From a virus: a stretch of DNA of 64,000 nucleotides. The stretch covers positions 64,001 through 128,000 of the IMG/VR virus record IMGVR_UViG_3300025674_000016; one strand, given 5' to 3'. Each line of letters opens with the position of its first letter. The first letter of the stretch is position 1. The translations under genes and the position numbers were made by a program. The notes below the pieces were generated by a model, which saw nothing but the letters and a program-made list of their open reading frames with translations, was not told the origin of the DNA and ran no database searches. Below, piece after piece: positions 11,692 to 56,222 of this stretch.

Positions 11692-11850
11692 GTGAAAATT
11701 AAAAAAGGCAGATTGCGACAAATAGTTAAAGAAGAATTAGATAAGTTTGTTGCAAAAGTAAACACTCGTACCCTGAACGAAAGCAAATCAACCCCAGATA
11801 AAATTATAGCTCTTTTGGAAGAACTAGAAAAAGATGGCAATAAAAACTAA
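11692..11850 (+). CDS. 52-aa leader-bearing small protein (not in ORF track)
   Basis: GGAGG RBS, GTG start; MKIKKGRLRQIVKEELDKFVAKVNTRTLNESKSTPDKIIALLEELEKDGNKN. Confidence 0.7.
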   Translation: MKIKKGRLRQIVKEELDKFVAKVNTRTLNESKSTPDKIIALLEELEKDGNKN

Positions 11851-12304
11851 TAATGATGGCGTTATTGTACATATTACCAATGTATTTAGAGAACGCGGCA
11901 CTTCCTTTGGGTTGTCGTCGTTACTCAACAGTCCATTGGCTTTGCGAAGGTTGTTGGAGGAAGTTTTGGGAGTAAATTGGAACGTAACTTGTCTTGAGGG
12001 GTCTGGCTACTCGAACGTATCCGATACCTATAGCATTAAAGAGGCTGATGTAGTCTTGCTTGTGGATACTTCTGCGAATCCAAAACACATAACTCTACCA
12101 AACCCCTCAACTGAAAATGGAAGAATAATTGTTGTTAAAGACTCTGGCGGTCTTACTTGGAAAAATGCGATAACAATCTCAGGCAGCCTGCAAAATAGTG
12201 CAACAGAGATCCAAATCACTTCTGAGTTTGGAGGGGTTGCATTAATTTCTGGGTGTACGGATAACGCTAATTTTCACAAATGGTATCTGATTGGATCAAT
12301 ATGA
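11834..12304 (+). CDS. putative fibre/virion protein
   Basis: ITLP...GRIIVVKDSGG...NAITI pattern typical of phage fibre domains. Confidence 0.5.
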   Translation: MAIKTNNDGVIVHITNVFRERGTSFGLSSLLNSPLALRRLLEEVLGVNWNVTCLEGSGYSNVSDTYSIKEADVVLLVDTSANPKHITLPNPSTENGRIIVVKDSGGLTWKNAITISGSLQNSATEIQITSEFGGVALISGCTDNANFHKWYLIGSI

Positions 12305-12313
12305 GGTAGTTAT

Positions 12314-13054
12314 ATGACTCAATATACTTCGCATGTATCGCAAAGTGCAACAACAATTTATGTAAAATCTGCTAGTGGTTTTGATGACGACACTACCTTT
12401 GGATCTTCACCTGCAAATAATCATGAAGTTACAGGAACTGTAAGATTTGCAAATAGGGTGTTTATAGAGAATCAAAATCTATATGTTACGGCAGACGCTG
12501 AAATAAATCAAGACCTGACTGTAGATAGTACAATTTACGGATCTAGAGTTTCGATTGGACCTAACAATTCGACACCACTAGTAAATTTAGAAATACACCA
12601 TACCGGAACAAAAGATCCAACGAATCTTTTTGCTGGCAACGGTGGTGGTGAATTTGTTTATTTTGGCACAGGGTCATTGACATTTGGAAAAATCTATTAC
12701 CTAAACTCGGACGGAGGCTGGGATGCTGTAAATGCCAATGGCACAGGGTCATTGGGCTCTTCAAGTGCTGGCAACCAATCTATTCTCGGTATAGCTCATG
12801 GGTCCAACCCTGCAACCAGTGGATTAATGATAAGAGGCTGGTGGAACCTTAATGGTGCTTCTCCGTATTTTACGGGTTCTTGGGTTACGGGATCGGCTGT
12901 ATATATTTATTCAGGATCAGCAGCAGATGCTGGAAGATTAACTGCAACTGCGCCAACAGGTGCCGGGGCTTATGTGAGGATTGTTGGCTACTGCACAGAT
13001 ACCCCAAATGTAATCTACTTCGATCCAGATAAGACATGGGTTGAAATTTCGTAA
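12314..13054 (+). CDS. putative fibre/decoration protein
   Basis: Gly/Ser/Thr-rich; C-terminal APTGAGAYVRIVGYC..IYFDPD. Confidence 0.45.
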   Translation: MTQYTSHVSQSATTIYVKSASGFDDDTTFGSSPANNHEVTGTVRFANRVFIENQNLYVTADAEINQDLTVDSTIYGSRVSIGPNNSTPLVNLEIHHTGTKDPTNLFAGNGGGEFVYFGTGSLTFGKIYYLNSDGGWDAVNANGTGSLGSSSAGNQSILGIAHGSNPATSGLMIRGWWNLNGASPYFTGSWVTGSAVYIYSGSAADAGRLTATAPTGAGAYVRIVGYCTDTPNVIYFDPDKTWVEIS

Positions 13055-13065
13055 TAGGTGACAAA

Positions 13066-13254
13066 ATGATGAAACAAATCGCAGACAGATATTTAGATAA
13101 GTTTATGAGCCGCAAGCTGCTTGTTTGGCTTACAACGACAGGATTCCTTATTTCTGGCCATGTTACAAACGAACAGTGGATGGCAATTGCCCTAGCTTAT
13201 GTAGGCGTTCAGGGCTTCGCAGATATTGCGGTAAGGTGGAAGGCAGGAAAGTGA
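13066..13254 (+). CDS. putative holin
   Basis: 62 aa; SRKLLV followed by two hydrophobic helices; basic C-terminus. Confidence 0.55.
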   Translation: MMKQIADRYLDKFMSRKLLVWLTTTGFLISGHVTNEQWMAIALAYVGVQGFADIAVRWKAGK

Positions 13255-13661
13255 TTACTTGGTTGGGCACAAAACTTTTTCTCAAGAAAGCCTGGGCTTG
13301 GCTAAAAACTTACTGGTATATTCCACTCTTAGCCTCTTGGTTGATTATCGCTTGGCTTGTTTTTAGGAAGGACAATGCAGAAGATATTCTAGATGTTTTT
13401 TACGAAGCCGAGCAAAGCTATAAAAAGCAGATAGAAGCCATCGAGAAAGCCCACGCAGAAGAAATAAAAAAAAGAGACAAGGCCCTTTCCAAGTATCAAA
13501 GAACAATCGAGCAACTAGAAAAAGAATTGGAAAGGCGTAGAATGCACTTAAAAGATGCAGAGCGCGAACGAATCAGAGAACTCTCAGAAGAATTTAAAAA
13601 TAAACCTGATGAATACACAAAAAGAATTGCAGAGGAGTTTGGATTTGAATTTGTGGAATAG
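13251..13661 (+). CDS. membrane-anchored coiled-coil protein (i-spanin-like)
   Basis: GTG start overlaps the holin stop; N-terminal TM segment WYIPLLASWLIIAWLVF then a charged coiled coil. Confidence 0.45.
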   Translation: MITWLGTKLFLKKAWAWLKTYWYIPLLASWLIIAWLVFRKDNAEDILDVFYEAEQSYKKQIEAIEKAHAEEIKKRDKALSKYQRTIEQLEKELERRRMHLKDAERERIRELSEEFKNKPDEYTKRIAEEFGFEFVE

Positions 13662-14124
13662 TCTTAAAGTTTTAATTTGTGTGTCTTTGGTCTTGCTCAT
13701 TATAGCCTTCCCAATGGAGCTTTTAGCTCAAGACTTGGAAAAGCCGAGACCGCTGATAACAAATTTAAAAAAAGATGAGCCTGCTCCTTTTGATGGTGTT
13801 CTACTTGACTCTTGGGCCATGTCAGAAATCATGGCAGAGATGGAATACGATCAAAAAAGATTTGAATTAGAATTAGACTTTATTAAAAAGAAAAAAGATG
13901 CAGAATGTTCCCTAGAATATGAAACACTCAAAGCAAGCTTTGATAGTTTAAAATTTAAGCACAAGGAAGTGCTCGAAATCAAAGATACCGAAATAGAAAA
14001 CTTAAGAGAGATAACAACTGAAAAAAAAGATTATTCTACATTATGGTATGTGGGAGGTTTTATCTCTGGTGTCGCACTATCCGTTGGGGCAGCATATTTG
14101 GCATCGGGAGCGTTTGGTAAATGA
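13645..14124 (+). CDS. secreted/membrane coiled-coil protein (spanin-like partner)
   Basis: TTG start after AGAGGAG; N-terminal signal-like segment, coiled coil, C-terminal TM segment. Confidence 0.4.
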   Translation: MNLWNSLKVLICVSLVLLIIAFPMELLAQDLEKPRPLITNLKKDEPAPFDGVLLDSWAMSEIMAEMEYDQKRFELELDFIKKKKDAECSLEYETLKASFDSLKFKHKEVLEIKDTEIENLREITTEKKDYSTLWYVGGFISGVALSVGAAYLASGAFGK

Positions 14125-14321: not shown

Positions 14322-15320
14322 ATGACATATCCATTACCTATTTTAACTTGGGAAAGAAGCGATATAAGCTCGTTTTCAAGTCCAACTGTTTTTGATATCT
14401 TGACATCCCTTAATAGTATTTTTGTAAGTTCTAGTTATTGGGAAGTAAAATCAACAGATATATCTATTACTGGGTCTTCCGATTATTATCTTGAGGTTGG
14501 GCCTATTACTAGCGCATCTTCTTCCTATGTTAACCAAAGAATTATTTTTGCTGGTGGTGCCAACCCAAATTCCATGTCAGTGGGATATACAGCGAATGCC
14601 AGCAGGCTCATGATTAACTACTGCCCAGACATAACAGGCCGAACAGAATCAGCAGCAAATTGGAAAACGGCAGATCCATTCTCTGGTTCTAGTATACCTG
14701 GTAAGGGCTTTGTCAAGCTAGGAGATACGTTTTCTACTATTACTCGTCTCTATGGCTTGATATGTCAAGAGGGGGTTATTTTAAATCTTAGAAAGGGGCT
14801 AGGGACTAACACTGCCTATCCATTCATGGCCGGTGCCCTTGTTGACCCCGGCCATGGAAACGGAGGGGACGCAAACAATCGACGTTGGATTTTGGCCTCT
14901 CAAGGAAGTTATGGAACATGGAATTCATCAACGCATGCTGCCATACCACAGACATCCGCCAATTTTTTTCTAAAAAACACAAGCACCACAAATGACTATC
15001 CTCACGCTTTTGTATGGAAAGAGTCTGACGACACTTGGGACTATAGTGTGGTGTGTGATACTGCGCACGATATCGAAGCAACATTGAGCAACAATAGAGA
15101 TATTGTTGATGACCAAGGATACATTGTACCACCACCAATGAGGGTTGTGGGGGGTAACGGCTCCCCAAATCGGGCTTACGGCTTTTTAAGGCAGATTTAT
15201 TTTTGTATTATTGGACAAGACGCAGTAGTAAAGCAAGGCTTAACGAGCAATGATTTATATTTTGTGTGGAGCCCGGTGAGTTCTAGTGACGGTGATGCCT
15301 TCATGGTAACTAATTTTTAA
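14322..15320 (+). CDS. putative virion/receptor-binding protein, paralog A
   Basis: Full-length similarity to 15333-16367. Confidence 0.5.
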   Translation: MTYPLPILTWERSDISSFSSPTVFDILTSLNSIFVSSSYWEVKSTDISITGSSDYYLEVGPITSASSSYVNQRIIFAGGANPNSMSVGYTANASRLMINYCPDITGRTESAANWKTADPFSGSSIPGKGFVKLGDTFSTITRLYGLICQEGVILNLRKGLGTNTAYPFMAGALVDPGHGNGGDANNRRWILASQGSYGTWNSSTHAAIPQTSANFFLKNTSTTNDYPHAFVWKESDDTWDYSVVCDTAHDIEATLSNNRDIVDDQGYIVPPPMRVVGGNGSPNRAYGFLRQIYFCIIGQDAVVKQGLTSNDLYFVWSPVSSSDGDAFMVTNF

Positions 15321-15332
15321 AAGGAGAAGACA

Positions 15333-16367
15333 ATGACATACCCACTACCTACTTTAACTTGGGAGATGAGTGAACAAGAAACTTTTTCAAGTCCAACTAT
15401 CTTTGATATCTTAACATCTCTTAATAATATTTTTACAAGCGCATCATACTGGGAGGTTAAAAATTCAAGCCTCGCATCGACCGGCTCTTCTGATCATTAT
15501 CTTGAGGTTGGACCTATTACTAGTGCCTCTGCATCTTACGCAGATCAAAGAATTATTTTTGCTGGCGGCGCCAACCCAAATACCATGGCATCATATTACA
15601 CACAGGTTTCCGACCGTTTAATGATTAATTTTTGCCCGGATATAACAAACAGAACACAGACAGCAGCAGATTGGAAAACAGCCGATCCATTTGATGGAGC
15701 AGACATACCAGGAACAGGCTTTGTTCAGCTTGGAACCTCATATAGCAGTATGAGTAGGATTCATGCGATCACTTGCCAAGAGGGGGTTATTTTGAATTTG
15801 CGAAGAGGAATTGGTAATAACACTGCCTATCCATTCATGGCCGGGGCTCTTGTTGACCCCGGCCACAGCAACGGAGGGGACGCAAATAATCGACGTTGGA
15901 TCTTGGCCTCTCAAGGGGGGGGCACGACGTATTCTCCATTTGGAACATGGAATTCATCAACGCATGCTGCCATACCACAGACATCCGCCAATTTTTTTCT
16001 AAAAAACACAAGCACCACAAGTAACTATCCTCACGCTTTTGTCTTAAAAACCTCCACTAATAGTTGGGACAGCAATGTAGTATGCGATACTGCGCACGAT
16101 ATTGAGGCAACCTTAAGTTCATTTAGAGACATCCTTGATGATCAGGGATACTTGGTACTTCCCTCAACTAGAGTAGTTAGCGGCAATCCAAAGTCTTCGC
16201 CAAGCTTAATGTACGGTTTCTTAAGGCAGATTTATTTTTGCATCAATGCTAGGGATAGAGAGTCTGGGCAAAGTTCGGATGGAGAAAACATATTTTTTGT
16301 ATGGGGGCCAGTTCAGGATGAAGCGTCTAGTCCTGCTGATTCTTTTATGGTAACAAACTTTTCATGA
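15333..16367 (+). CDS. putative virion/receptor-binding protein, paralog B
   Basis: Tandem paralog; 80 bp identical tract (15941-16020 = 14912-14991). Confidence 0.5.
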   Translation: MTYPLPTLTWEMSEQETFSSPTIFDILTSLNNIFTSASYWEVKNSSLASTGSSDHYLEVGPITSASASYADQRIIFAGGANPNTMASYYTQVSDRLMINFCPDITNRTQTAADWKTADPFDGADIPGTGFVQLGTSYSSMSRIHAITCQEGVILNLRRGIGNNTAYPFMAGALVDPGHSNGGDANNRRWILASQGGGTTYSPFGTWNSSTHAAIPQTSANFFLKNTSTTSNYPHAFVLKTSTNSWDSNVVCDTAHDIEATLSSFRDILDDQGYLVLPSTRVVSGNPKSSPSLMYGFLRQIYFCINARDRESGQSSDGENIFFVWGPVQDEASSPADSFMVTNFS

Positions 16368-16382: not shown

Positions 16383-16766
16383 ATGAAAGACTACAATCAA
16401 ATAGCAAAATTTGAACAAGCCATCCAACAAAAGTATGGCGAAGAAGCAGTCCAAAATCCAAAAGCAAATTGGTCCGAGGACAAAGAAGAAGAATACTTAA
16501 ACCAAATCAAAAAGCTTCACAATAAACAAAACAAAAACAAAGAGGACAAAGACAAAGTAGAACACAATGGCTTTTTAATATCAAAAAAACTACTTAATAA
16601 AGACTCTGAGCGTCTTTGCCCAACGTGTAATACTTACTCATTTAGCATAAAAGACGATGTTTATATGAGCAAGTTTGAATGCTGTTTTGATTGCTATATC
16701 CAATGGGTCGAAGGCAGAGAAGAAAGATGGCTCTCAGGTTGGAGACCAGAAAAACAAAGTGCTTAA
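16383..16766 (+). CDS. hypothetical zinc-finger protein
   Basis: CPTC...CCFDC. Confidence 0.6.
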   Translation: MKDYNQIAKFEQAIQQKYGEEAVQNPKANWSEDKEEEYLNQIKKLHNKQNKNKEDKDKVEHNGFLISKKLLNKDSERLCPTCNTYSFSIKDDVYMSKFECCFDCYIQWVEGREERWLSGWRPEKQSA

Positions 16767-16781
16767 AAATGGGAGAATGTA

Positions 16782-17378
16782 ATGAAATTATTACTTGAAC
16801 GTTGGCGAAAATATTTGAATGAGCAGGATGAGCACGCGCTCTTAAATGAAGCTACAGATTTAGTAAAAAATGGCGAGAACATTATAATGTTTTCAGATTA
16901 TGCTAAGAAGCACATTGAGAGTGGCCACAAGAAACCCGGACTTGGTTCTATCTTTGCCGATTTTGACCTCTCTTTGGTTAGCAAAACTTTAGGCACGATC
17001 CCCCTAGAAGGGAATGGTGGAGTCTATTCAGTGGAAGTTCCGGGCGTTGGATATGATTTGGTGTTGCCAATGGACGAAGCCTTGCAATTACCGGACGCAC
17101 AGAAAACAGTCGTTACAAAAGAAGAACGCCAAGGCCCAGTTGAGGTTATTGGCATCAAAACCTCTAAGCCGCTTTCAGGGTTTTTGCAAAATAAGCTTTC
17201 AGTTGTTGTTAGACAAACAAAAAATATGCAATATGTACCCGATGATGTAAAAGAGCAAGTTGCTGATGCTGTCGCGCAAGGACGCGTCTATTCTGTTTTG
17301 AGCGCTTGGCCCGGACGAGGCGACGTGCCCCCTTCAAGCAAATGGGGAGAGGACTGGGCGGTAATTATACCTTCTTGA
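16782..17378 (+). CDS. hypothetical protein with MKLLLERWRKYLNE leader
   Basis: Leader contains LNE twice; body has KHIESGH..GSIF..VLSAWPG. Confidence 0.6.
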   Translation: MKLLLERWRKYLNEQDEHALLNEATDLVKNGENIIMFSDYAKKHIESGHKKPGLGSIFADFDLSLVSKTLGTIPLEGNGGVYSVEVPGVGYDLVLPMDEALQLPDAQKTVVTKEERQGPVEVIGIKTSKPLSGFLQNKLSVVVRQTKNMQYVPDDVKEQVADAVAQGRVYSVLSAWPGRGDVPPSSKWGEDWAVIIPS

Positions 17379-17405
17379 AAGAGAACTTAAATTTAGGAGA
17401 TTAAT

Positions 17406-17852
17406 ATGAAAATTACTAAATCAAAACTAAAACAACTTATAAGAGAAGAAATTTCAAAAGTTATTCCAGAAGTTTACTATCTGGAACCAAAGGGCAAGCC
17501 CAGAGCAGCGTATCAAGATTATGAAAATGAAGATTTTCAATATGAAAATGCCGCCAACATGCAAAATAGTGTTAGCAATATACTAGAGCTTCACAAAGAA
17601 CTATGGGACGACTTCTACGACATTGAAGAAGAAAGGACGGATAAAGTTGATTATGACCCTGACCCCGGTGGAGCAGGGACAGCAGATAAATACTTGGAAC
17701 GGATATATAGAGAAATGGGTGAACCATTTGCGTTTTTGGTTAGTAAATACTTGGAGAAAAACAAAATCCCAGCGGAGCAATTATCTAGTGACGTATTAAA
17801 TCCAGATGAGGATAGTCGAGACTACGAATATTATACTGATTTGCCAAAATAA
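17406..17852 (+). CDS. leader-bearing acidic protein (putative internal head protein)
   Basis: MKITKSKLKQLIREE N-terminus. Confidence 0.6.
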   Translation: MKITKSKLKQLIREEISKVIPEVYYLEPKGKPRAAYQDYENEDFQYENAANMQNSVSNILELHKELWDDFYDIEEERTDKVDYDPDPGGAGTADKYLERIYREMGEPFAFLVSKYLEKNKIPAEQLSSDVLNPDEDSRDYEYYTDLPK

Positions 17853-17876
17853 ATAAAACTATACGGAGCGCTTTCA

Positions 17877-18383
17877 ATGAAAATTACTAAATCTAGATTG
17901 CAGCAGATTATAAAAGAAGAAATCCAAGCTGAAATGAAAAAAAACATAGCTTATTCTGGTGTTGTTCTTGACGATAAAAGCGTAGAAAAATTAAAGGCAG
18001 CAGCTAAAGCCATAGGTGTGCCTGAAGGTTTTGTTTTTAAAACAAATGCTGGGGCTCCTTTACCCCACCACATGACAATTGTGGCTTTTAAACCAATTGT
18101 TTACTCAAAAGGAAATAAATCGCATGATTTTAGTGAACATTATCCTGTTGGTGGAGAAGTAACGCTAACAGTAACACACATTGGATTTGATAATGAAGCA
18201 ATGGCTGCCAAAGTTGATCCGCCTGGCCCAATATCTACTAAAAGAATTAACTTTCCTCACATCACAATAGCTATCCGCGAAGGGGGGAAGCCTTCTAATT
18301 CGAATGATATACTCGATAAAAATTTCCAAAAAGTCGAAGAGTTTGAAGTTACGGGCACAGTACAAGAGGTTCCACAAGGATAG
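17877..18383 (+). CDS. 2H phosphoesterase-family protein with MKITKS leader
   Basis: Two HxT motifs (PHHMTI, PHITIA) about 63 aa apart; YSGVVLD and GGKPSNSN resemble the tRNA-ligase CPD-like 2H subgroup. Confidence 0.75.
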   Translation: MKITKSRLQQIIKEEIQAEMKKNIAYSGVVLDDKSVEKLKAAAKAIGVPEGFVFKTNAGAPLPHHMTIVAFKPIVYSKGNKSHDFSEHYPVGGEVTLTVTHIGFDNEAMAAKVDPPGPISTKRINFPHITIAIREGGKPSNSNDILDKNFQKVEEFEVTGTVQEVPQG

Positions 18384-18412
18384 AAGTAAAAAGGCCAATT
18401 GGAGGAGAAAAA

Positions 18413-18799
18413 ATGAAAATTACTAAATCAAAACTAAAACAACTTATAAAAGAAGAGCTAGAGCAAGTGGTTGAAGAGGGGGAACTGGACGAAGGGTTCC
18501 TTGACCGCTTGATGGGCAGGAGCATGAAGAAAGGCGGAGACATGGTTAAGCCAAAAGTTTATGCTCCCGACAACAGAGGGACAATCAGAGACCTCCAGAT
18601 GGACAAGGACGAAATGGGTGACGCTATCGAAGAGTTCAATTTGTCTCTTAAAGACCTAGACGACAGAATGAAAAGTGAACTGTCCAAAGTGAGGGACATG
18701 GTGCTCGATCTGCAAGATAAAGTTCCTAGCGGCGAAGCTTTTAATAAGATAATTAAGAACTTAGACGACAGAATTAAGGCACTAGAGGGGGGACGATAA
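18413..18799 (+). CDS. leader-bearing coiled-coil protein (putative internal head protein)
   Basis: MKITKSKLKQLIKEE...ELDE/GFLD. Confidence 0.6.
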   Translation: MKITKSKLKQLIKEELEQVVEEGELDEGFLDRLMGRSMKKGGDMVKPKVYAPDNRGTIRDLQMDKDEMGDAIEEFNLSLKDLDDRMKSELSKVRDMVLDLQDKVPSGEAFNKIIKNLDDRIKALEGGR

Positions 18800-19366
18800 G
18801 TGTCCACAGTATTAGAAATTATAAATGGTATCGCACAAGCAGCAGCAAACGCATATGATGGTGCTCACGATGAAAACGGCGAACCAATTAAAGTTGGTCT
18901 TAAGCGTGAAGAAGGTCACCCAATTCACGATAAGCGCGTAATGGACGGCTTTTCTGTTAAGTTTCAAGGGCCGTATCTCTGCATCTGCTACCACTCAGAG
19001 ATCAACCTTAAGGACGTTCAGGGCGATAAATTAGAAAAAGAAATCGAGCAGATGATTGCCAAGGTCGCAACCTTTTTAAAAAAAGAATACAAGCGAGTCA
19101 CTGGTAACACCTTGACCTTGACAAAAGATGGAGATGTCCAAGCAAGAATGGAATACATGAACCGTATTCGCTGCTGGGTCACTGCACAATGTGATTACAA
19201 GATCGGCGGCTTAGACTCCGAAGCTAGAAAGCAGCCCTCCGAAGACAGGCTAGAAAAAAACTTCAAAGACTTCTTGGCCTTAAGCGACGACAAAAGGCCG
19301 AAGAACGATAAAAGAAAAAAAGATAGCGACCCCACATTCACTCCTTGGAACATGCTAAAGAAATGA
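18800..19366 (+). CDS. hypothetical protein
   Basis: 188 aa ORF, tightly packed with neighbours. Confidence 0.6.
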   Translation: MSTVLEIINGIAQAAANAYDGAHDENGEPIKVGLKREEGHPIHDKRVMDGFSVKFQGPYLCICYHSEINLKDVQGDKLEKEIEQMIAKVATFLKKEYKRVTGNTLTLTKDGDVQARMEYMNRIRCWVTAQCDYKIGGLDSEARKQPSEDRLEKNFKDFLALSDDKRPKNDKRKKDSDPTFTPWNMLKK

Positions 19367-19752
19367 GTTTATTAGAGCAAATAATCAGAGAACAAATAAA
19401 ACAAAGACTCAACGAGGCAGGCGAAGCAAGGATGAGCGTCCATCCGTTTGCAAACCACTTAGCCAATCAGAGAGATACAACACCTCAAGAAAACCTGTAC
19501 GATGATATCGTCAATGCAACTTTGATTAAAATGGTTTCTGCTCACACAGACGAGCAAGTAAGAGGTATTATTCGTGAACTGGCTGATAGCTATTCAACTG
19601 GACCTGCTGGCGTTGGTGGCAGGTTCTCTGATGCCCAAGTAGAAGAAATCCAAGATCTTGTGTACGATAAGATAGAGCAAAAATTAGATGTAAATTTGCG
19701 CTCCCACCTACCTCAAGACAGAGAACACCCTCTTTTTGTAAGCGAGGAGTAA
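19363..19752 (+). CDS. hypothetical protein with leader-like N-terminus
   Basis: ATGA coupling; MSLLEQIIREQIKQRLNE. Confidence 0.55.
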   Translation: MSLLEQIIREQIKQRLNEAGEARMSVHPFANHLANQRDTTPQENLYDDIVNATLIKMVSAHTDEQVRGIIRELADSYSTGPAGVGGRFSDAQVEEIQDLVYDKIEQKLDVNLRSHLPQDREHPLFVSEE

Positions 19753-21324: not shown

Positions 21325-23373
21325 ATGGCTAGACGAACTATAAGAGCAAGAAGAAACCAACACAACCCTAGAAACCCCACATCTGAACTTTTTAAAAGAC
21401 TGACAAGGCTGCTATCTGGGCCTATTGTTAGTTATCGCAATCAAGCAGAGCGTCAATTGTCTCGTCGCAAGATGGACAAATATAGGTTTAGATCTGCGAG
21501 TGGGCAACAATTTAAAAAAACAACACACAATCCACTGGATTATTTGCACTCTCACATCCTTGCAAACCAAGGCAGAAGCGAGCGGTACGCAGACTTTAAT
21601 CAGATGGAGTATACGCCTGAGATTGCCTCGGCTCTTGATATTTATGCAGACGAGATGTCAACAAGCTCGGATCTCAGACAACTTTTAAAGATTGAGTGTC
21701 CTAATGAAGAGATCAAAAGTATTCTTCACAGCCTCTATTACAATGTCCTGAATATCGAACACAACATGTTCGGATGGTGCAGGACAATGTGTAAGTTTGG
21801 GGACTTTATTCTTTATCTCGACATTGATGAAAATCACGGTGTCAAGAACGTTATTGGCCTTCCATCGCATGAAGTTGAGAGAATTGAGGGTGAAGATCCC
21901 ACAAACCCAAACTATATTCAATTTCAATGGAACTCAGGAGGTATGACTTTTGAAAATTGGCAGGTTGCACATTTCCGTATTCTTGGAAATGATAAGTTCG
22001 CTCCCTATGGAACTTCTGTCCTTGACCCTGCTCGTCGCATTTGGAGACAGTTGACTCTCCTTGAGGACGCAGTAATGGCTTATCGTATTGTTCGATCTCC
22101 TGAGAGGAGGGTTTTCTATATTGATGTAGGTGCAATTCCCCCCAATGAGATCGAGCAGTATATGCAAAAGATTGTAACTCAAATGAAGCGCAATCAGATT
22201 GTCGATACTGACACTGGTAGAGTTGACTTGAGATATAATCCTCTTTCAATTGAGGAAGACTATTATATTCCAGTTAGAGGCGGCAATTCTTCAAAGATCG
22301 AAACACTTGCAGGCGGCTCTTATACTGGCGATATTGATGATATTAAGTATCTGAGAGATAAATTATTGTCGGCCTTAAAAGTGCCTGGCCCCTATTTGAT
22401 GAACAATACTGAAGCCGCTGATGATAAAACAACCCTAGCACAAAAAGATATTAGATTTGCTAGAACAATCCAAAGGCTACAAAGATCTGTTATCTCTGAA
22501 TTGGAGAAGATCGGAATTATTCATCTTTATGTTATGGGGTACAGAACAAAAGATCTTATCTCTTTTAAGTTAAAGCTCAACAACCCATCACAGTTGGCAG
22601 AGATGCAAGAGCTAGAGCATTGGAAATTAAAGTTTGATATTGCTTCCTCCGCAACCGAAGGATACTTCAGCAGACAGTGGGTCGCAAAGAACATCTTTAA
22701 CTTGAGTGATGAAGAGTTTATTCGCAACCAGAGAGAAATGTATTACGACCGCAAGTTTGATGCTGACCTTGAGTCTGCTGCTTCTGCTGCAACCGAGGTA
22801 ACTCAACGAGAATATCAAGGCATGCAGGACTTTGCAGGCAAAGGCGACCAAGCAGGATTTGGTGAAGATAAAGGAGGTGATCTCGGCCTAGGAGATGAAG
22901 GCGGCGGTCTTGATTTAGGAGGTGATCTCGGCGGCGAAACACCAGCAGGAGAGGAAGGTGACACCAAAACACCAGCAGAAGGCGGAGATGAAGGCGGCTC
23001 TCCTCCGGGCGATGACCTTTTATTAGCCAAACCAAGCAAGCGAGATGATGATGTCAAAGTCAAGACAGACGCCTATGGCAAGGTGATAGCTAGAAAAGCA
23101 AAAAGATCAAAAGGCTGGTACAAGCCGGTTCATTACGATCAGAGAGAAAGTTCAGGCGCGAGATATAAAAATAAAAAATCAAAATATGCTGGCGATATGG
23201 GATTGACTTCCAAGACAATAACACCTGGCAGATACCAATTGGGCAGAATTTCTAAGGGCATAACTGAGGGCCAAGATACTAGTTATAGGGAAGAAGAATT
23301 GCTTTTTGAAGCTAGTAGTGAAATTAGAGATTTGATCTCACAGATGGAGAAGCGCGATGAAACTAAAACATAA
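21325..23373 (+). CDS. portal protein (T4 gp20-like) with long acidic Gly-rich C-terminal extension
   Basis: LLEDAVMAYRIVRSPERRVFYIDVG, EDYYIPVRGG, DIRFARTIQRLQ. Confidence 0.95.
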   Translation: MARRTIRARRNQHNPRNPTSELFKRLTRLLSGPIVSYRNQAERQLSRRKMDKYRFRSASGQQFKKTTHNPLDYLHSHILANQGRSERYADFNQMEYTPEIASALDIYADEMSTSSDLRQLLKIECPNEEIKSILHSLYYNVLNIEHNMFGWCRTMCKFGDFILYLDIDENHGVKNVIGLPSHEVERIEGEDPTNPNYIQFQWNSGGMTFENWQVAHFRILGNDKFAPYGTSVLDPARRIWRQLTLLEDAVMAYRIVRSPERRVFYIDVGAIPPNEIEQYMQKIVTQMKRNQIVDTDTGRVDLRYNPLSIEEDYYIPVRGGNSSKIETLAGGSYTGDIDDIKYLRDKLLSALKVPGPYLMNNTEAADDKTTLAQKDIRFARTIQRLQRSVISELEKIGIIHLYVMGYRTKDLISFKLKLNNPSQLAEMQELEHWKLKFDIASSATEGYFSRQWVAKNIFNLSDEEFIRNQREMYYDRKFDADLESAASAATEVTQREYQGMQDFAGKGDQAGFGEDKGGDLGLGDEGGGLDLGGDLGGETPAGEEGDTKTPAEGGDEGGSPPGDDLLLAKPSKRDDDVKVKTDAYGKVIARKAKRSKGWYKPVHYDQRESSGARYKNKKSKYAGDMGLTSKTITPGRYQLGRISKGITEGQDTSYREEELLFEASSEIRDLISQMEKRDETKT

Positions 23374-24172
23374 TAAAAAGAGGAATACAGCATTTTTATA
23401 TGAAGTTCTTGTTAGGCACCTAACAAAGAGTGTTATCAACAATGATCAAGAAAAGAAATCTGTTGTAACAAAAATTATAAAAGAACATTTCAATAAAAAC
23501 ACAATGCTCTATAAAGAACTTGAGATCTATCGCGCCATCACAGATCAAAAGAGCTTGGACTATCACCTTGCAGAGAAGTTGATCTTTGAAGCAAAGAGAA
23601 CATACGCCAAGTTAGACAAAGAGTCCATATTTAGAGAGCAAAGTAATTTGATTAAAAATATAAACAAGAATCTCTCTAAAGCTGCATATCAGGTATTTGT
23701 TCCAAACTATAAAGATCTAGCTTCAATCTATCAAATCTTGCAAGACCAATTGCCCCTTAAATCTAAAATGATTTTAGAAGAAGGGTTTGTTAGAAGCATA
23801 GCAACCAACAAGACTGAAAAAGCCGAGGGGATGAAACCGATAACAAATATTGTTTACAAGACTTTTGTAAAAAATTTCAATAAGCAGTATGGAGAGTCCT
23901 TGTTGCAGGAGCAGATCCTATTGCTTAACAAATATATTACGTCCTTTTCAGATGGCGGCGTTGATTTTAAGGTATACATGAATGAAGAAATAGCAAGACT
24001 TGAATCAATGGTTTCGCTTATGCTGGAAAGGCAAGACGTACAGCAAGATGATTCTATAAAGTACAAGATCGAAAGAATCTTAGAAACAATAAGAGGTTTC
24101 AATAATAAAGAAGTTGACAACTTGATGCTGGAGCAAGTGCTCAAAATTCAGAAGTTGGTTAAGGAATTTTAA
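23357..24172 (+). CDS. conserved head-module hypothetical protein
   Basis: 271 aa between portal and protease; ACTAGTTA at 23278-23285 upstream. Confidence 0.6.
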   Translation: MKLKHNKKRNTAFLYEVLVRHLTKSVINNDQEKKSVVTKIIKEHFNKNTMLYKELEIYRAITDQKSLDYHLAEKLIFEAKRTYAKLDKESIFREQSNLIKNINKNLSKAAYQVFVPNYKDLASIYQILQDQLPLKSKMILEEGFVRSIATNKTEKAEGMKPITNIVYKTFVKNFNKQYGESLLQEQILLLNKYITSFSDGGVDFKVYMNEEIARLESMVSLMLERQDVQQDDSIKYKIERILETIRGFNNKEVDNLMLEQVLKIQKLVKEF

Positions 24173-25226: not shown

Positions 25227-25832
25227 ATGTCAGATATAAACAAATATTTAATTCGAGAGTTCTATGAACTTTGCGATGGTGGTAAATGCGAAGACTTTTT
25301 AACGGAGTCTGAAAAAAGAAGAGTCAGGGAGGGAAAGGTTACTATTCTTTCTGGGAAACTTCAAGAGGCGGAGTGTCTTAACGGCAACAAGCGTATTTAC
25401 CCCATGAACATATTAAAGCGAGAAGTTGAAAACTATCGTAAATTTGTCGAACAACGCAGGGCAATGGGCGAGCTAGATCACCCCGATTCAAGCGTTGTCA
25501 ACCTTCAAAATGTTTCACACATTGTTACAGATATCTGGTGGGACGGAAAGAAAGTAATGGGCAAGATTGAAGTCCTGAACACACCAAGCGGCAATATCCT
25601 TAAGAATCTTGTTGAGGCTGGTATCAAGATGGGCATCTCCTCTAGAGCACTCGGCAGCGTTACCCAGAGAAATGGCAAGACATATGTTGAGGATGATCTA
25701 CAACTAATTTGTTTCGATATGGTCAGCGAACCTTCGACACCAGATGCCTTTATGTTAAAAGAACATAGAATGAGAAATTCTAATTACGAACCCACAAACA
25801 TTCACAACTTATTGGACAGCATACTTAAATGA
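25227..25832 (+). CDS. prohead core protease (T4 gp21-like)
   Basis: NGNKRIYP, GELDHP, GISSRALGS, FDMVSEPS. Confidence 0.93.
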   Translation: MSDINKYLIREFYELCDGGKCEDFLTESEKRRVREGKVTILSGKLQEAECLNGNKRIYPMNILKREVENYRKFVEQRRAMGELDHPDSSVVNLQNVSHIVTDIWWDGKKVMGKIEVLNTPSGNILKNLVEAGIKMGISSRALGSVTQRNGKTYVEDDLQLICFDMVSEPSTPDAFMLKEHRMRNSNYEPTNIHNLLDSILK

Positions 25833-26245
25833 AACGAAATGAATTAAAAAAAGTTTTAAAACCTCTTATTAAAGAGTGCATTAAAGAGGTTATTTTTGAA
25901 GAGGGAGTTTTATCTGGCTTGATATCAGAAGTTCTAAAAGGAACGTCCAGCGCACAACTGGTTAGTGAAGCCCCGCAAAAGAAAGTTCAAAAACCAAGGG
26001 CAAAGTCAATAGAAAAGCGGCCAGCCAGACAAGATAAGTTAAATGAAATGAGAAGATCACTCACCGAAGCTATCGGCAAAGATGCTTACGGTGGCGTGGA
26101 TATCTTCGAAGGCGTTCAGCCTATTTCAAAAGCAGGTACACCAGGACCAGCGGCACCATCAAGTCCGCTGCAAGCCTACGCACCAAACGATGCGGGTGTT
26201 GATATCAGTGCGATATTCAACCCAAATTGGAAAAATTTAGTATAA
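25829..26245 (+). CDS. hypothetical protein, leader-like N-terminus
   Basis: MKRNELKKVLKPLIKECIKE..; LNE site. Confidence 0.6.
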   Translation: MKRNELKKVLKPLIKECIKEVIFEEGVLSGLISEVLKGTSSAQLVSEAPQKKVQKPRAKSIEKRPARQDKLNEMRRSLTEAIGKDAYGGVDIFEGVQPISKAGTPGPAAPSSPLQAYAPNDAGVDISAIFNPNWKNLV

Positions 26246-26254: not shown

Positions 26255-26518
26255 ATGTCAAGAGTAAACGCCGAGGTAAAGGTAAGAAGAGGAGAATCTG
26301 TCGAGAAAGCAATGCGAAAGCTCAAAAAGATCTTAAAGAAAACAGGTTTTCTTGATGAGCTAAGAGAGCGCCGATATTACGAAAAACCTTCTGTTACAAG
26401 AAGAAAAAATAAAGCAAAGCGCCAGAGGCTTATAGATAAACAAAACAAGCTTAGAAAACTTGAGGAAGAAAGATTATATAAGCCGAAGAAAAGGCGAAAC
26501 AAGAGGAGAGATAAATAA
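26255..26518 (+). CDS. rpsU: phage-encoded 30S ribosomal protein bS21
   Basis: VKVRRGESVEKAMRKLKK...ELRERRYYEKPS signature. Confidence 0.9.
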   Translation: MSRVNAEVKVRRGESVEKAMRKLKKILKKTGFLDELRERRYYEKPSVTRRKNKAKRQRLIDKQNKLRKLEEERLYKPKKRRNKRRDK

Positions 26519-26937
26519 TGTCAACTTTTAATTATAAAGCGGGGATGTCTAGCGTTGGGCAGTATCAGATGAGTGCAATTCCATATGCTACTGCTTCTGT
26601 TAATGTTCCAGCCCTAGGAAATGACCCAGTGAGAATTGACTTTCCTAGAGTATCAAAATTTGTGACAATCAGGAATGTTATATCAACAGACGATGCTGAT
26701 GCAACTCTTAGAGTTGGCTTCTCCTCTATTGGCACCTCTGGATCTGTCTCAGGCCAAGACAACTATTTTACTCTTGCAAATGGTGAAAGCTATACTGGAG
26801 AGTGGAGAGTGAAAAGTGTTTACCTGCTGAGCGACTCGGCTTCCGAATCGTCTGCTTCAATTATTGCTGGTCTAACAACCGTGTCTACTAGCTCTATTGG
26901 TTTTGACAATTGGTCCGGCTCTCTGGGCGTCGGCTAA
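26518..26937 (+). CDS. putative head decoration/structural protein
   Basis: Beta-rich 139 aa protein in the head module. Confidence 0.45.
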   Translation: MSTFNYKAGMSSVGQYQMSAIPYATASVNVPALGNDPVRIDFPRVSKFVTIRNVISTDDADATLRVGFSSIGTSGSVSGQDNYFTLANGESYTGEWRVKSVYLLSDSASESSASIIAGLTTVSTSSIGFDNWSGSLGVG

Positions 26938-27006: not shown

Positions 27007-28011
27007 ATGAGTTCAATGCTAGAACAGGCTATTGTTGATGCTGCCGCACTTAAAGAAGCAGCATTGAAAAATGCCGAACAACAAGTTTTAGAAAGATATT
27101 CCAAAGATATAAAAGAAGCAGTGAATGCTTTATTGGAGCAGGACGAGCTGGAAGACGCGCCGCCCATGATGATGGAGCCAGAGCCCGTTATGGACGAAAT
27201 CCCCCCTGCTCCTGCCGCAGGCGAGAAGCTTTGTCCTTGCCCCGATGACGAAGAAGTTGTTGAATTAGATTTAGATAATCTAATGATGCAGGTCGATGAT
27301 GAAGAGCCAGATCCAGAAGATGCAATGGATCGAGAAGGTGTAGCTCAAGAGTTGGGCGATCAAGATGATCTTCTTGGTGGGGACTTAGGTGGCTTAGAAA
27401 CAGGCGACGAGGAAGAAGAAGGTCTTCAACTTGAAGAGAACATTGATATTGATGAATCAGATTTAATTGATCTTGTTGAGGAGCTTGTTTTCGATCACAT
27501 GTCGCAGCCTAGCGGAAACCCAACGGGCCTGCCTGTTGAGGATCTTCATAGAGAACAAGAGCTTGAGGAGCTAGCAAAGCAGATTCAACAAGCAAATGAA
27601 AAAAAGAAAGATCTTCAAGAATCACTTAAGGATTCAAGATCGGAGAACAATAAACTTAGAAGAACAGTTTTAAAACTAAAAGAAAAACTAGACGAAGCAT
27701 TGGTTTCCAATGCAAGACTAATTTATACAAACCGTGTGCTGGGGAACGACTCCCTGAATGAGCGACAAAAAGATAAAATTGTCGAAAAGATCTCCGAAGC
27801 ACGAACAATTGAAGAAGCCAAAATGATCCATGAGGCACTTCAAAGTGCAGTGGCGGGCACTTCCAAAAAGGAAGGTCCAAAATCACTGAACGAAGCAGTT
27901 TCACGTCAATCAACACAGGTTTTTTCACGTCGTCAACGATCCGAGACCAATCAGGTCAACGATCAATTTTTTAAGAAGATGCAGCGTTTAGCTGGCATCA
28001 AAAAGAATTAA
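27007..28011 (+). CDS. prohead core scaffold protein (gp22-like)
   Basis: Very acidic, coiled coil, many LxE sites, ends MQRLAGI; directly upstream of the capsid gene. Confidence 0.8.
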   Translation: MSSMLEQAIVDAAALKEAALKNAEQQVLERYSKDIKEAVNALLEQDELEDAPPMMMEPEPVMDEIPPAPAAGEKLCPCPDDEEVVELDLDNLMMQVDDEEPDPEDAMDREGVAQELGDQDDLLGGDLGGLETGDEEEEGLQLEENIDIDESDLIDLVEELVFDHMSQPSGNPTGLPVEDLHREQELEELAKQIQQANEKKKDLQESLKDSRSENNKLRRTVLKLKEKLDEALVSNARLIYTNRVLGNDSLNERQKDKIVEKISEARTIEEAKMIHEALQSAVAGTSKKEGPKSLNEAVSRQSTQVFSRRQRSETNQVNDQFFKKMQRLAGIKKN

Positions 28012-28027: not shown

Positions 28028-29767
28028 ATGAGCGTTTTACAAAAGTTAACCGAAGGCATTGTTAATCGTAACATCCAGAAAGAGGGCGAAGCTCTTCTCC
28101 AGAAGTGGGAGCAGACTGGTCTTCTTGAGGGTATGGATAACGAAAATGCCCGTTCAAACATGGCTGTTCTCTTGGAGAACCAGGCCAAAGAGCTTCTCCG
28201 AGAGGCTTCTTCTATGGCGGCTGGTGATGTCGAAGGCTTTGCCAGCGTGGCATTCCCCATCGTCCGCCGAGTCTTTGGTGGTCTTATCGCCAACCAATTG
28301 GTCTCAGTCCAACCTATGAGCTTGCCTGCTGGCTTGATTTTCTTCCTTGACTTTACTTATACCGATAGCCGCGCTGGTCAAACTGCCGGTGAGTCGGTAT
28401 ATGGTGGTAATGTTGTTGGTAAGGGTCTTGTCGATGGTGTGGACCTGTCTCCGACTGGAGATACGCAAGCGGGTGGTTTTTATGACCTTAGCACTGGCTA
28501 TAGTTCTCCAACTGGCTCTGTTTCTGTTACCACAGCAGCACCAGACGGCTCTACTGGTGATTTGCCAACTGTGCTAACTGATGTTGCAGTTAGTGCTCTA
28601 TCGGAAGCACAAAAAAAGGCCCTCCAGTACGACCCGGATATCCTAGCAGATGCAAGCTTGAAAGTCACAGTTCACAAGTCGCCTAACGCTGCTACTTCCG
28701 ATTTCCCAAACTTGAATCTAAATGCCCTGACTGCAATTGAGGCATCTGGTATTGATGGTGTTCTAGTGCGAAGGCTAACTAGAATTGATAAAAACGATAG
28801 CAACAAATTAGTTTTTGTAGTTATTAGGGACGCTGCGACACCAGAGGCGCACGGAGCTATCACCTTTAACTATCCGATGACAGACAAGTATGAAGCTAGT
28901 ACCGCCATTGGTTCTGTTGTTGGTAACGTTCCATTTGGCCTTGAGGGTGCAGATGATGTGTCTGGCGGTGATTTTGACGGTTCAACCCGCGATAGAATCC
29001 CAGAGATTGATATCAAGGTCGATTCTGTCAGCGTGACCGCTGTCACCAAGAAGTTGAAGGCCAAGTGGACCCCTGAGTTGTCTCAGGATCTTAATGCTTT
29101 CCACAACATGGACGCAGAAGTAGAGCTTACATCGATCCTTTCCGAGCAGATTGCTCTTGAAATCGATCAGGAAATCTTGAATGATCTTGTTAAGGATGCT
29201 ACTGCTGGCACATACTATTGGAGCCGTCGCCCCGGTCGCTTTGTTGATCGCGGCACTGGCGATGATATCAGCGGCCTTTCTAACGAATCTCTCTTGGGTG
29301 CAGATTTCACTGGCACAGTCAGTGAATGGTACGAGACCCTTATTGAGACAATCAACGATGTCTCTGCGCAGATCCACCGCAAGACTCTGCGCGGCGGAGC
29401 TAACTTCTTGGTCTGTGGTCCTGAGACCGCAAATGTCCTAGAGTTCACCGCTGGTTTCCGCGCTAGCGTTACCCACGATGCAGATACTGGCCAAGCCGGT
29501 ACTGTTAAGATCGGTGCGATCTCCAAGAAGTTCGACGTTTACGTCGATCCTTACTTCCCAAGAAACGTGGTTCTAGTTGGCCGCAAGGGCTCCAGCTTCC
29601 TTGAAAGTGGCTACGTCTACGCACCTTATGTGCCTCTACAGGTCACGCCGACTATCTTCGGTGTTGAGGACTTTGTGCCTCGTAAGGGCGTTATGACGCG
29701 CTACGCCAAGAAGATGGTGAGGCCCGACATGTACGGCTTGGTTGTTATCAAGGACTTCCTTGGCTGA
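28028..29767 (+). CDS. major capsid protein (T4 gp23-like)
   Basis: VQPMSLPAGLIF, KLKAKWTPELSQDL, EIDQEIL, YAPYVPL, PRKGVMTRYA. Confidence 0.97.
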   Translation: MSVLQKLTEGIVNRNIQKEGEALLQKWEQTGLLEGMDNENARSNMAVLLENQAKELLREASSMAAGDVEGFASVAFPIVRRVFGGLIANQLVSVQPMSLPAGLIFFLDFTYTDSRAGQTAGESVYGGNVVGKGLVDGVDLSPTGDTQAGGFYDLSTGYSSPTGSVSVTTAAPDGSTGDLPTVLTDVAVSALSEAQKKALQYDPDILADASLKVTVHKSPNAATSDFPNLNLNALTAIEASGIDGVLVRRLTRIDKNDSNKLVFVVIRDAATPEAHGAITFNYPMTDKYEASTAIGSVVGNVPFGLEGADDVSGGDFDGSTRDRIPEIDIKVDSVSVTAVTKKLKAKWTPELSQDLNAFHNMDAEVELTSILSEQIALEIDQEILNDLVKDATAGTYYWSRRPGRFVDRGTGDDISGLSNESLLGADFTGTVSEWYETLIETINDVSAQIHRKTLRGGANFLVCGPETANVLEFTAGFRASVTHDADTGQAGTVKIGAISKKFDVYVDPYFPRNVVLVGRKGSSFLESGYVYAPYVPLQVTPTIFGVEDFVPRKGVMTRYAKKMVRPDMYGLVVIKDFLG

Positions 29768-54535: not shown

Positions 54536-54756
54536 GTAGTAGCGTCGAAATAAAAGATGATGGTTGTAAATCTCTTTCTCTCGACATAAGAACATCTGGT
54601 GTCGGACTTGAGGTTTGGAGAGAGGACGCCGAAGGGACGGAACTTATTACGATCTGGTTTGGTCTAAGGCGTAAGGAAGACAGAGAAGAATTACAAAAAC
54701 TTATTTTTCATCTCCAACATCAATTGGAGATTCATGAGAGGTTAGGTTGGGAATGA
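54532..54756 (+). CDS. hypothetical protein, paralog of 53754-53993
   Basis: LIFHLQHQL. Confidence 0.6.
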   Translation: MSSSVEIKDDGCKSLSLDIRTSGVGLEVWREDAEGTELITIWFGLRRKEDREELQKLIFHLQHQLEIHERLGWE

Positions 54757-55067: not shown

Positions 55068-55471
55068 TGATGAATAGGTTTTACCAGAGACTTGTGGACA
55101 TTACGTCTAATGAGCGGTATTTTTACAGTGATTTCGATATCACTTTCGGAAAGCAGAAAGGGCCAAACCCAGATCCCATCGAGGTTCGTTGTAGTTTTCA
55201 AGATTTGGTAAAGCTTTGTGATGACATTGAATCTGAAGGGTTCACGGGAATCATTGAGTTGGACCCTAGAAGGCTTTTGTTTGGAGTTCGCTTCGTGACC
55301 CATGTCGGAGATCCCGATGAGATTGTAAAGGTTTTTTGTGACGTGAGGGGTATCCACCTCATCATCCAAAGCCTTAAATTGAGTTATCCCGATGTAGTCG
55401 AAGAATTTAACACTCTTTTTTCATCTGAAGGTGAGCCTTTCTTTTCCAAGTTGGCTTTGAGGTGGAGGTGA
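55064..55471 (+). CDS. hypothetical protein
   Basis: Coupled ORF. Confidence 0.55.
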   Translation: MMMNRFYQRLVDITSNERYFYSDFDITFGKQKGPNPDPIEVRCSFQDLVKLCDDIESEGFTGIIELDPRRLLFGVRFVTHVGDPDEIVKVFCDVRGIHLIIQSLKLSYPDVVEEFNTLFSSEGEPFFSKLALRWR

Positions 55472-55475
55472 TAAA

Positions 55476-55664
55476 ATGAAACCAGGTAATTTGGTAAAGC
55501 CTAAACACAAATACTCCTACAACGAAGCGGGGATTGGGGTATTGCTTGAAATAGAAAAAGGCTTTTATAGACATAATGATTATTTCCAAGATCGTTTGAC
55601 AATATATTGGCTCCACGGGGAGGTAACTAGAGAACCTGATTCTTATGTGGAGGTGATAAAATGA
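55476..55664 (+). CDS. small SH3/KOW-like protein
   Basis: MKPGNLVK..GIGVLLEI..IYW pattern; GGAGGTG RBS. Confidence 0.6.
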   Translation: MKPGNLVKPKHKYSYNEAGIGVLLEIEKGFYRHNDYFQDRLTIYWLHGEVTREPDSYVEVIK

Positions 55665-55894
55665 ATTGTGAAGATTGTGAAAAAGAAGTAAGGGCGGCAA
55701 CTGCTCCTATGTGGGTGACAATTGAACACCAAGCATTACAACTACGACAGATCTCTCAACTATGCTGGGAGATCGTAAATGAGTTGCAAGAAGCAGACAA
55801 CCTCCTAGTTGGTGAATACCCAGACGAGTTTTCAAAAGTCTTTGATATTGCAGGTGAAATCGAGGATTGGTTAGTGAGGACAAAGAAAAAATAA
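55661..55894 (+). CDS. hypothetical protein
   Basis: GGAGGTG RBS. Confidence 0.55.
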   Translation: MNCEDCEKEVRAATAPMWVTIEHQALQLRQISQLCWEIVNELQEADNLLVGEYPDEFSKVFDIAGEIEDWLVRTKKK

Positions 55895-55901
55895 CTATTT
55901 A
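55893..55901 (+). promoter_or_regulatory. isolated putative late promoter motif AACTATTTA
   Basis: 24 nt before the leader-bearing ORF at 55926, inside an otherwise non-structural region. Confidence 0.65.
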
Positions 55902-55925
55902 TATTCACCACAGGAGGGTAAGAAG

Positions 55926-56222
55926 TTGAAGATAATAAAGTCAAAACTAATACAAATAATTAAAGAAGAGCTTGATAAAGAGGCGGTGAGGTCAGAAAAG
56001 GAGGCGGCTGTCGATTCCTTGCTGGGCAGTAGGCCACTTACCATTCCTCAACTAGAGCTTCTTTTTCCAAATTCTGAAGCTGAAGATATAAAAAATATAG
56101 AAACAGAACTTAAAAAGTTTGAAGAATTTGACCGCGAAGGGTACAGAGAAGCCTTGCTTGACCTTCTTTATCAACAGAAACCTATTGACCCCGAAGGAAA
56201 CCCCTTGGAATTCTCCTCTTGA
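55926..56222 (+). CDS. leader-bearing protein (putative internal head protein)
   Basis: MKIIKSKLIQIIKEEL; GGAGG RBS. Confidence 0.65.
   Translation: MKIIKSKLIQIIKEELDKEAVRSEKEAAVDSLLGSRPLTIPQLELLFPNSEAEDIKNIETELKKFEEFDREGYREALLDLLYQQKPIDPEGNPLEFSS

Follow-up and report, generated by a model that had tools for sequence, protein, structure and literature searches.

A leader shared by unrelated genes

Why would a phage place nearly the same N-terminal peptide on proteins that are otherwise unrelated? The question is raised by the window analyzed here, a stretch of 64,000 nucleotides that sits within the 155.7-kb (~156-kb) genome of an uncultured T4-like myovirus, and for which an earlier note had described five ORFs with a common leader (here leader A) that was proposed to load arbitrary cargo into the capsid. 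All five ORFs (11692, 17406, 17877, 18413 and 55926) were recovered on the + strand, and a leader HMM built from them, as that note had suggested, scored each at 37–44 bits when all six frames of the genome were scanned. Their bodies are indeed unrelated, since no BLASTP cross-matches were obtained at E<1. The three looser copies described alongside them fared differently: 19363 carries a shortened leader A, as judged from the full form on its orthologues, while 16782 carries a distinct type (leader B) and 25829, a conserved gene of the head block, has three core motifs in tandem. The leader genes of the window are as follows.

11692..11850 (+): 52-aa protein, mostly leader A and then a short helix; GTG start (sequence, leader HMM, orthologues)
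16782..17378 (+): leader B and a domain with a possible BECR (RelE/CdiA-CT-like) nuclease fold (VIA-align, Atlas)
17406..17852 (+): leader A and an acidic 148-aa protein
17877..18383 (+): leader A and a 2H phosphoesterase with two HxT motifs (PF08302, E 1.4e-6; Foldseek CNPase, E 5.9e-6)
18413..18799 (+): leader A and a 128-aa protein; initial 37 nt the same as those of 17406
19363..19752 (+): shortened leader A, gene directly before terminase; full leader in orthologues
55926..56222 (+): leader A and a 98-aa protein; TTG start; a lone late-type unit amid small non-structural genes, with a sigma-70-like promoter after it

Beyond the window, leader A is found at genome positions 2165 (with an internal copy at 2882), 3696 and 6229, and leader B at 7086 and 146103; the ORF at 3696 consists of leader only, 26 aa in length. 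PHROG gave no match for any of eight leader proteins, and the body of 55926 had no homologue in five related records.

Relation of the leaders to the T4 capsid-targeting sequence

Leaders A and B have a common core, hydrophobic-x-x-hydrophobic-hydrophobic-x-Glu, at residues 8–14, with positions 8, 11, 12 and 14 conserved in both. The pattern is present in 385 of 395 type A leaders (a count that is partly circular for this type), where it is aliphatic, and in 65 of 85 type B leaders, where it is mostly aromatic. In the capsid-targeting sequence (CTS) of T4, the scan of Mullaney and Black assigned targeting to residues 4 and 7 and processing to residues 8 and 10 (reviewed in PMC9026906). A and B have hydrophobic residues at the corresponding distances (six and three) from the Glu after which they would be cut, and the CTS of IPI, IPII and IPIII, which is processed by gp21, likewise has an N-terminal Met-Lys start and the same core spacing (PMC9026906, PMC9958956, PMC3012670, PMC12373910). 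The likeness to T4 internal proteins drawn in the earlier note is supported. It includes the L/I-x-E motif of gp21 as the end of the leader, the unrelated cargo and the hypervariable locus, and both genomes encode head proteins of the gp21 and gp23 types.

The accompanying claim that the peptide differs from that of T4 holds in part. The aromatic positions of T4 are aliphatic in leader A; however, the functional-position spacing is kept and leader A exchanges with the more T4-like leader B, so the leader is not wholly different. By eye, type B resembles the 10-residue T4 signal and type A does not, these sequences being too short for statistics, and HHalign of leader A against leader B (5%) gave no detectable sequence homology. 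The proposed link to T4 is one of a four-position pattern read from sequence. The leaders also differ from the T4 signal in length (14–22 residues versus 10), in the aliphatic targeting positions of type A, in often having two predicted cut sites, and in the existence of two or more interchangeable types. The second (I/L)xE that leader A often carries peaks at residues 21–22, in 59% of leaders compared with 25% after shuffling and 8–15% in downstream windows. The principle of a capsid-targeting leader is already known from T4, and we consider it likely that the leader described here is a longer variant of the T4 signal that is cut by the gp21-type protease.

Cargo and the protease motif at the domain boundary

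The 452 cargo proteins fall into 333 families, which, with the unrelated bodies of the five window genes, supports a modular leader on unrelated cargo. Leaders A and B are swapped for one another in two enzyme families, that of the 2H phosphoesterase 17877 and that of 16782, possibly a nuclease with a BECR fold, and in both the swapped leaders stop at (I/L)xE directly before the domain. This position of the motif makes the proposed cleavage after (I/L)xE by the protease at 25227 probable. The 17877 protein itself has no second (I/L)xE beside its domain. Among the 2H homologues there is one that lacks a leader and is joined to an AAA_33 domain.

The assignment of 17877 is based on two HxT motifs together with a 2H fold, and H65/T67 and H128/T130 are invariant. 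With regard to Acb1, the anti-CBASS nuclease of T4, the Foldseek rows among the matches listed are CNPase-type enzymes. For 16782, a BECR nuclease fold is possible from structure comparison: many top rows of the structure search are BECR toxins, the Atlas gives TM 0.51 to a cluster in which 39% of members are RNAse_A_bac, and H44 and H49 are conserved. The VIA-align match to 6cp8 (Z 6.2, rmsd 3.6 over 88 residues) is weak but consistent, with Z within the chance-match range; neither PDB nor BFVD contained a Foldseek match to 16782 at E<=0.001, and PDB sequence searches returned nothing for the cargo of either 16782 or 17877.

Head-block genes and docking candidates

If the leader directs proteins to the head, what in the prohead would it bind? 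The T4-type head genes and related genes of the window are listed below.

23357..24172 (+): conserved protein of the head block in which the core motif occurs five times; may belong to the prohead core
25227..25832 (+): gp21-type prohead protease (PF03420, E 1.8e-30; phrog_207, E 3e-54; His and Ser motifs)
25829..26245 (+): conserved gene that follows the protease, with the core motif three times in tandem at the N-terminus; may encode a prohead core protein, and leader A may derive from it
27007..28011 (+): probably the major scaffold protein, since its position and composition resemble those of gp22; preceded at 42 nt by the late motif
28028..29767 (+): major capsid protein of the gp23 type, with LxE (residues 57–59) as a candidate maturation site

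A gp21-type protease and a gp23-type capsid protein are thus both encoded in the genome. Enrichment of (I/L)xE is highest in the head block (25829, protease, capsid, 23357 and scaffold; 1.9–3.0 fold), compared with 0.6–1.3 in most other families. In 50 orthologues of 25829 the core motif is enriched 11-fold and (I/L)xE 3-fold, and in 88 orthologues of 23357 the values are 3.9-fold and 2.0-fold; when leader A was compared with 21 conserved families by HHalign, 25829 was best at 21%, which is not significant. The earlier note had named the scaffold as the docking partner, but no result singles it out. The 27007 protein contains 15 (I/L)xE sites, its upstream late motif is kept in 60 of 85 orthologues, and it had no family match in PHROG or Pfam; co-folding of leader A with two scaffold copies scored 0.00, which is evidence neither way. 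The scaffold, 25829 and 23357 are all retained as docking candidates, and the leader pattern shared by 25829 and 23357 suggests a place to look for the docking site.

An alternative hypothesis is that the helix docks cargo on another hub in the infected cell, such as a host or phage chaperone, a protease adaptor, the ribosome, the polymerase or an assembly site, and that the proteins never enter the head. Copies that are internal or C-terminal (175 internal ones among the 150 highest multi-copy matches) would fit such a role, as would housekeeping-like cargo domains (thioredoxin, DnaJ and guanylate kinase) and the composition of the cargo, about two thirds of which is net acidic, whereas T4 internal proteins are described as highly basic (PMC8442874). 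In favour of capsid targeting, transmembrane helices are found in 0.8% of cargo versus 6.9% in the comparison. Docking elsewhere leaves unexplained why several leader types end at a head-protease motif exactly at the domain boundary and why the motif is concentrated in head-block proteins, and we regard it as unlikely relative to a capsid-targeting signal.

Movement of leader DNA

Over their first 37 nt, 17406 and 18413 do not differ at all, as had been reported. Identity of 11 synonymous codons would be expected by chance at ~1e-5 under genome codon use, a figure that ignores the A-rich bias of gene starts. Leader DNA is copied together with its ribosome-binding site, and these observations support the suggestion that the leader moves as a DNA cassette. 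Near-identical DNA pairs are commoner within one locus (46 of 590) than otherwise (1237 of 61026).

Both the copied ribosome-binding site and the excess of such pairs within a locus would also be expected if the cassette were a portable translation start, that is, a ribosome-binding site with A-rich first codons that raises late expression, with the peptide incidental. This explanation is improbable, since synonymous identity of leaders between loci is 55% while residues 8, 12 and 14 are 96–98% conserved, which indicates that selection acts on the peptide, and 79 of the 175 internal copies have no Met.

Four of the leader genes lie in a single island:

16751..18800 (+): 2050-nt indel island flanked by the conserved ORFs 16383 and 18800; contains four leader genes

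The island (genes 16782–18799) is absent from four near relatives (L094, L095, L103 and L104), and in three others (L097, L101 and L102) its slot is filled by other leader genes. A joint that skips the island is present in two other runs; contigs from RNA libraries give neither timing nor level, and DNA carry-over is possible in them. The slot, beside terminase, is hypervariable, as are the ip loci of T4 (PMC12373910).

The late-type motif

Three copies of a late-type promoter motif bear on the leader genes:

11659..11667 (+): 24 nt before 11692; the orthologues in L095 and L103 have it upstream too
16588..16596 (+): within the coding part of ORF 16383, with the cargo island 193 nt downstream
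55893..55901 (+): 24 nt before 55926

The motif copies end exactly 24 nt before the start codons of 11692 and 55926, in agreement with the earlier note. Its further suggestion that the motif forms part of the cassette was not borne out: the motif lies <=60 nt upstream of 4.5% of leader-A genes compared with 6.8% of neighbouring genes, and direct coupling of motif and leader is rejected for want of enrichment just upstream of leader genes. The link is at the operon level only and comprises ~six independent units. Across the genome, the nearest recognised upstream promoter is the late-type motif (<=2.8 kb) for 13 of 13 leader-type genes, compared with 71 of 128 others. At the copy inside ORF 16383, synonymous sites are preserved in every orthologue whose peptide was locatable (69 of 69). 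A late role is assigned to the motif from its position; no paper on it was found in the literature searched.

Distribution beyond this genome

The scan of relatives, also suggested in the earlier note, gave 458 matches of at least 16 bits in 289 sequences, compared with 0 in reversed decoys, and the leader stands at the ORF start in 403 of 411 matches. Leader A has matches in 14,449 protein clusters, in which the copy is often inside the protein or at its C-terminus. As judged from these matches, a short, swappable helical tag sits on thousands of unrelated proteins in uncultured T4-like phages of aquatic origin, which make up a large family. No leader profile was found in Pfam or NCBIfam, tblastn of the leader against GenBank phages gave no match, and leader A had no match in Mel-JY01, RM378 or LR756511, so no cultured phage with leader A was found in these searches. 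No description of the leader strings, or of the leader in huge phages, was found in the literature searched, which consisted largely of papers open without subscription.

RiPPs, too, combine a single leader with many small variable bodies, and the leader described here could in principle be a recognition tag for a modifying enzyme of RiPP or radical-SAM style. This is very improbable: the called genes of the genome include no radical-SAM CxxxCxxC protein, the sole match being in an HNH-like protein; no maturase family was seen to co-occur with the leader in this genome; and the cargo includes folded enzymes with a junction at a protease motif. Lys/Glu-rich short helices are common, but chance similarity or an assembly artefact is refuted by the absence of decoy matches at threshold and by the presence of leader A in many independent contigs and complete genomes.

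A proposed model for capsid loading and comparison with known systems

In the model that we favour, leaders A and B would be capsid-targeting propeptides of the T4 kind. The leader gene would be transcribed late, mostly within an operon, and the amphipathic helix would bind the assembling prohead core via hydrophobic residues 8 and 11, by analogy with T4. The gp21-type protease would then cut at one or both of two sites, Glu14 and the second (I/L)xE (residues 21–22), to free the cargo in the head, a step with strong sequence support, so that tagged proteins are probably packed into the particle and trimmed. The weakest step, for which we see about even chances, is ejection of at least part of the cargo together with the DNA, to act on host defence or RNA metabolism. 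At the sequence level, leader-coding DNA and its ribosome-binding site are seen to be copied and recombined onto new genes, so that cargo turnover is fast. A bolder version, which we offer tentatively and think less probable than its negation, is that the core motif works as a docking helix independently of its position and derives from the conserved prohead core protein 25829, its DNA and ribosome-binding site being copied onto and between genes to form protease-jointed polyproteins, loading >14,000 protein families that include nucleases and phosphoesterases injected against host defences. If this were true, the leader profile would be a ready index of injected effectors in a large uncultured phage clade.

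The binding partner of the T4 signal and the role of most injected proteins are still open questions (PMC9958956, PMC12373910). If the capsid-targeting reading is correct, the leader allows candidate injected proteins to be picked in their thousands for anti-defence screens directly from sequence, and the signal exists as interchangeable types with one four-residue pattern. Compared with T4, there are about a dozen leader genes per genome and >14,000 clusters overall rather than three, internal and C-terminal copies produce multi-unit proteins unlike the described T4 signal, and the cargo is mostly acidic rather than basic. Head-protein propeptides of phiKZ and SPN3US likewise have several Glu cut sites each, and gp53 and gp54 have identical N-termini on diverged proteins; however, these phages are of another lineage, with a cut motif AxE or SxE, propeptides mostly >100 residues and no common short leader on arbitrary cargo (PMC5694885). 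In P1, a short N-terminal segment of DarB suffices to load a foreign protein, but the Dar proteins have no common consensus and the phage is unrelated (PMC9024508). For bS21-encoding T4-like aquatic phages, the part of the report available to us describes no leader; it places bS21 in the terminase-portal-protease-capsid block, as here, on the reverse strand rather than co-directional as in this genome (PMC9723584).

Modular leaders on unrelated cargo

On the evidence of sequence comparison, the ~15-residue N-terminal leader behaves as a modular, swappable and mobile unit that ends at the motif of the head protease. About a dozen genes of this genome carry it, in two types: type A, on the ORFs starting at window positions 11692, 17406, 17877, 18413 and 55926, has near-fixed M1, K2, L8, I11, I12, E14 and E15, and type B, exemplified by 16782, has W8, F/Y11, L12 and E14. 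The sequences and coordinates of the earlier note, its 37-nt identity and its two 24-nt spacings from AACTA[T/C]TTA (the late motif) to 11692 and 55926 were all correct on re-check, and its claim that the ORF bodies are mutually unrelated was borne out. The type A profile gave 458 matches in 289 related sequences and none among decoys, with 403 of 411 unique matches at ORF starts.

The 452 cargo sequences downstream of leaders form 333 families (283 singletons), with scattered pentapeptide-repeat, leucine-rich-repeat, thioredoxin, DnaJ, kinase, HD, GNAT and exonuclease domains. Modularity is seen most clearly in two families of enzymes. On homologues of 17877, a 2H phosphoesterase, the leader is of type A or type B, and it is missing where the enzyme is fused to an AAA_33 domain; these leaders stop at (I/L)xE a few residues ahead of the first strand. 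On homologues of 16782, a possible BECR-fold nuclease, the leader is of type B, of type A or of one of two other forms, and ends at a Glu motif at one constant domain position. Because both types occur on homologues of both enzymes, types A and B are interchangeable. In a related record (L101:1406-2128), leader B precedes a P-loop (AAA/PNK-like) protein in the variable slot that here holds four leader genes; this protein and the 2H phosphoesterases hint at RNA-repair cargo.

Source genome and late motif

The window is bases 64,001-128,000 of a 155,702-base virus record and encodes a gp23-type capsid protein and a gp21-type protease; its sequence, together with synteny to Microcystis phage Mel-JY01, adds terminase, portal, bS21 and contractile-tail genes and a probable scaffold gene. 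Sequencing runs that contain this DNA carry the labels aquatic, freshwater or seawater.

Features of the source genome
Window 26255-26518, co-directional with head-block neighbors: bS21-like ribosomal protein gene (from sequence and Mel-JY01 synteny, no profile search)
Window 14322-16367: a tandem pair of paralogues (332 and 344 aa), likely variable virion-surface proteins, in a slot whose gene content varies among relatives
Window 26518-26937 and genome 129030: a pair of paralogues, each of 139 aa; late motif often upstream of orthologues
L003:4360-5478 (genome 144359): C-5 cytosine DNA methylase (PF00145), possibly packaged; late motif 30 nt upstream, start ending in a Glu motif

Copies of the late motif favor one strand (28 to 2). 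Since the motif also lies upstream of the scaffold gene in 60 of 85 orthologues and of the neck, sheath and tube genes (assigned by synteny) in about 60%, it is probably the late promoter. The earlier note had proposed capsid loading by a leader tied to this motif, and its interpretation is supported in part: the leader is modular, swappable and mobile and stops at the motif of the head protease. The late motif is not enriched immediately upstream of leader genes. The link is at the level of the operon, with a copy upstream, within 2.8 kb, of each of the 13 leader-type genes in this genome. One copy (16588-16596) lies within conserved ORF 16383, hidden in its coding sequence 193 nt ahead of the leader-gene island, and is kept at synonymous positions in 69/69 orthologues; 18800, 19363 and the terminase would likewise be under its control. 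Contigs from the RNA libraries of two studies include island genes, giving neither timing nor certain transcription. We infer late expression of the leader genes. A second promoter-like motif (nine copies, genome 147589-154558, a small-gene region) is the nearest promoter of no leader gene in this genome.

Cleavage and relation to the T4 signal

T4 gp21 cuts after L/I-x-E (PMC9026906). Type A has the E14 site and a second one, which is most frequent at residues 21-22 and far exceeds its frequency in shuffled sequences. (I/L)xE is enriched in head-block proteins of the clade and in few other conserved families; this distribution suggests that the head protease keeps T4 specificity, and the leader would be one of its substrates.

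In the T4 signal, residues 4 and 7 serve targeting and 8 and 10 processing (PMC9026906). The conserved residues of types A and B (8, 11, 12 and 14) have identical spacing but lie one helical turn farther from Met. Given this shared spacing, we take both types for longer forms of the T4 signal and not for a new principle. The peptide is too short for homology to be shown. Three copies of the same residue pattern stand at the beginning of 25829, a conserved gene, and 23357 has five; both encode candidate prohead core proteins. Derivation of leader A from 25829 is a lead only.

Two features depart from T4. Each of the top profile matches, a set biased to multi-copy proteins, has 2-4 leader copies. 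Many copies are flanked closely on both sides by a Glu motif, and some are C-terminal. Such proteins may be processed into separate units, or they may be fused genes that keep internal starts. The cargo is also mostly acidic. Together these features leave room for cargo that is packed in the head and not ejected, or for a docking helix with a non-capsid role. Under the T4-like reading, we infer packaging of the leader proteins; cargo injection and an anti-defense function are its weakest parts.

Mobility and distribution

Relatives that share the flanking genes at 98% identity lack genes 16782-18799, the empty junction is present in two other sequencing runs, and other leader genes occupy the slot in more distant relatives. 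A 26-aa leader-only ORF (L001:3696-3776, genome coordinates) is chimeric, one part matching the 5' end of gene 4145 (32/34 nt) and the other an internal leader copy at 2888 (44/48 nt). Some internal copies retain their own ribosome-binding site and ATG. Leader DNA is more similar within than between loci, to which shared codon bias may contribute.

An exact leader DNA pattern was found in at least 119 viral stretches, against a single contig from 185,579 prokaryote genomes; this 305-kb contig of MAG TMED69 (L293, NHDW01000006.1) is dense in leader genes (16 leader-A matches) and is probably phage DNA binned into a bacterial MAG. The leader profile matched 14,449 protein clusters (50% identity; library-wide E<=0.001), and Pfam and NCBIfam have no model covering leader A. 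Three near-complete related virus records have 4-11 type A copies per genome, and the 484-kb phage LR756508 has 8. LR756508 also holds a cluster of about 250-280-aa genes (L295:20745-25900) that begin with a shorter leader; it ends in LxE at residues 7-9 and may be another type.
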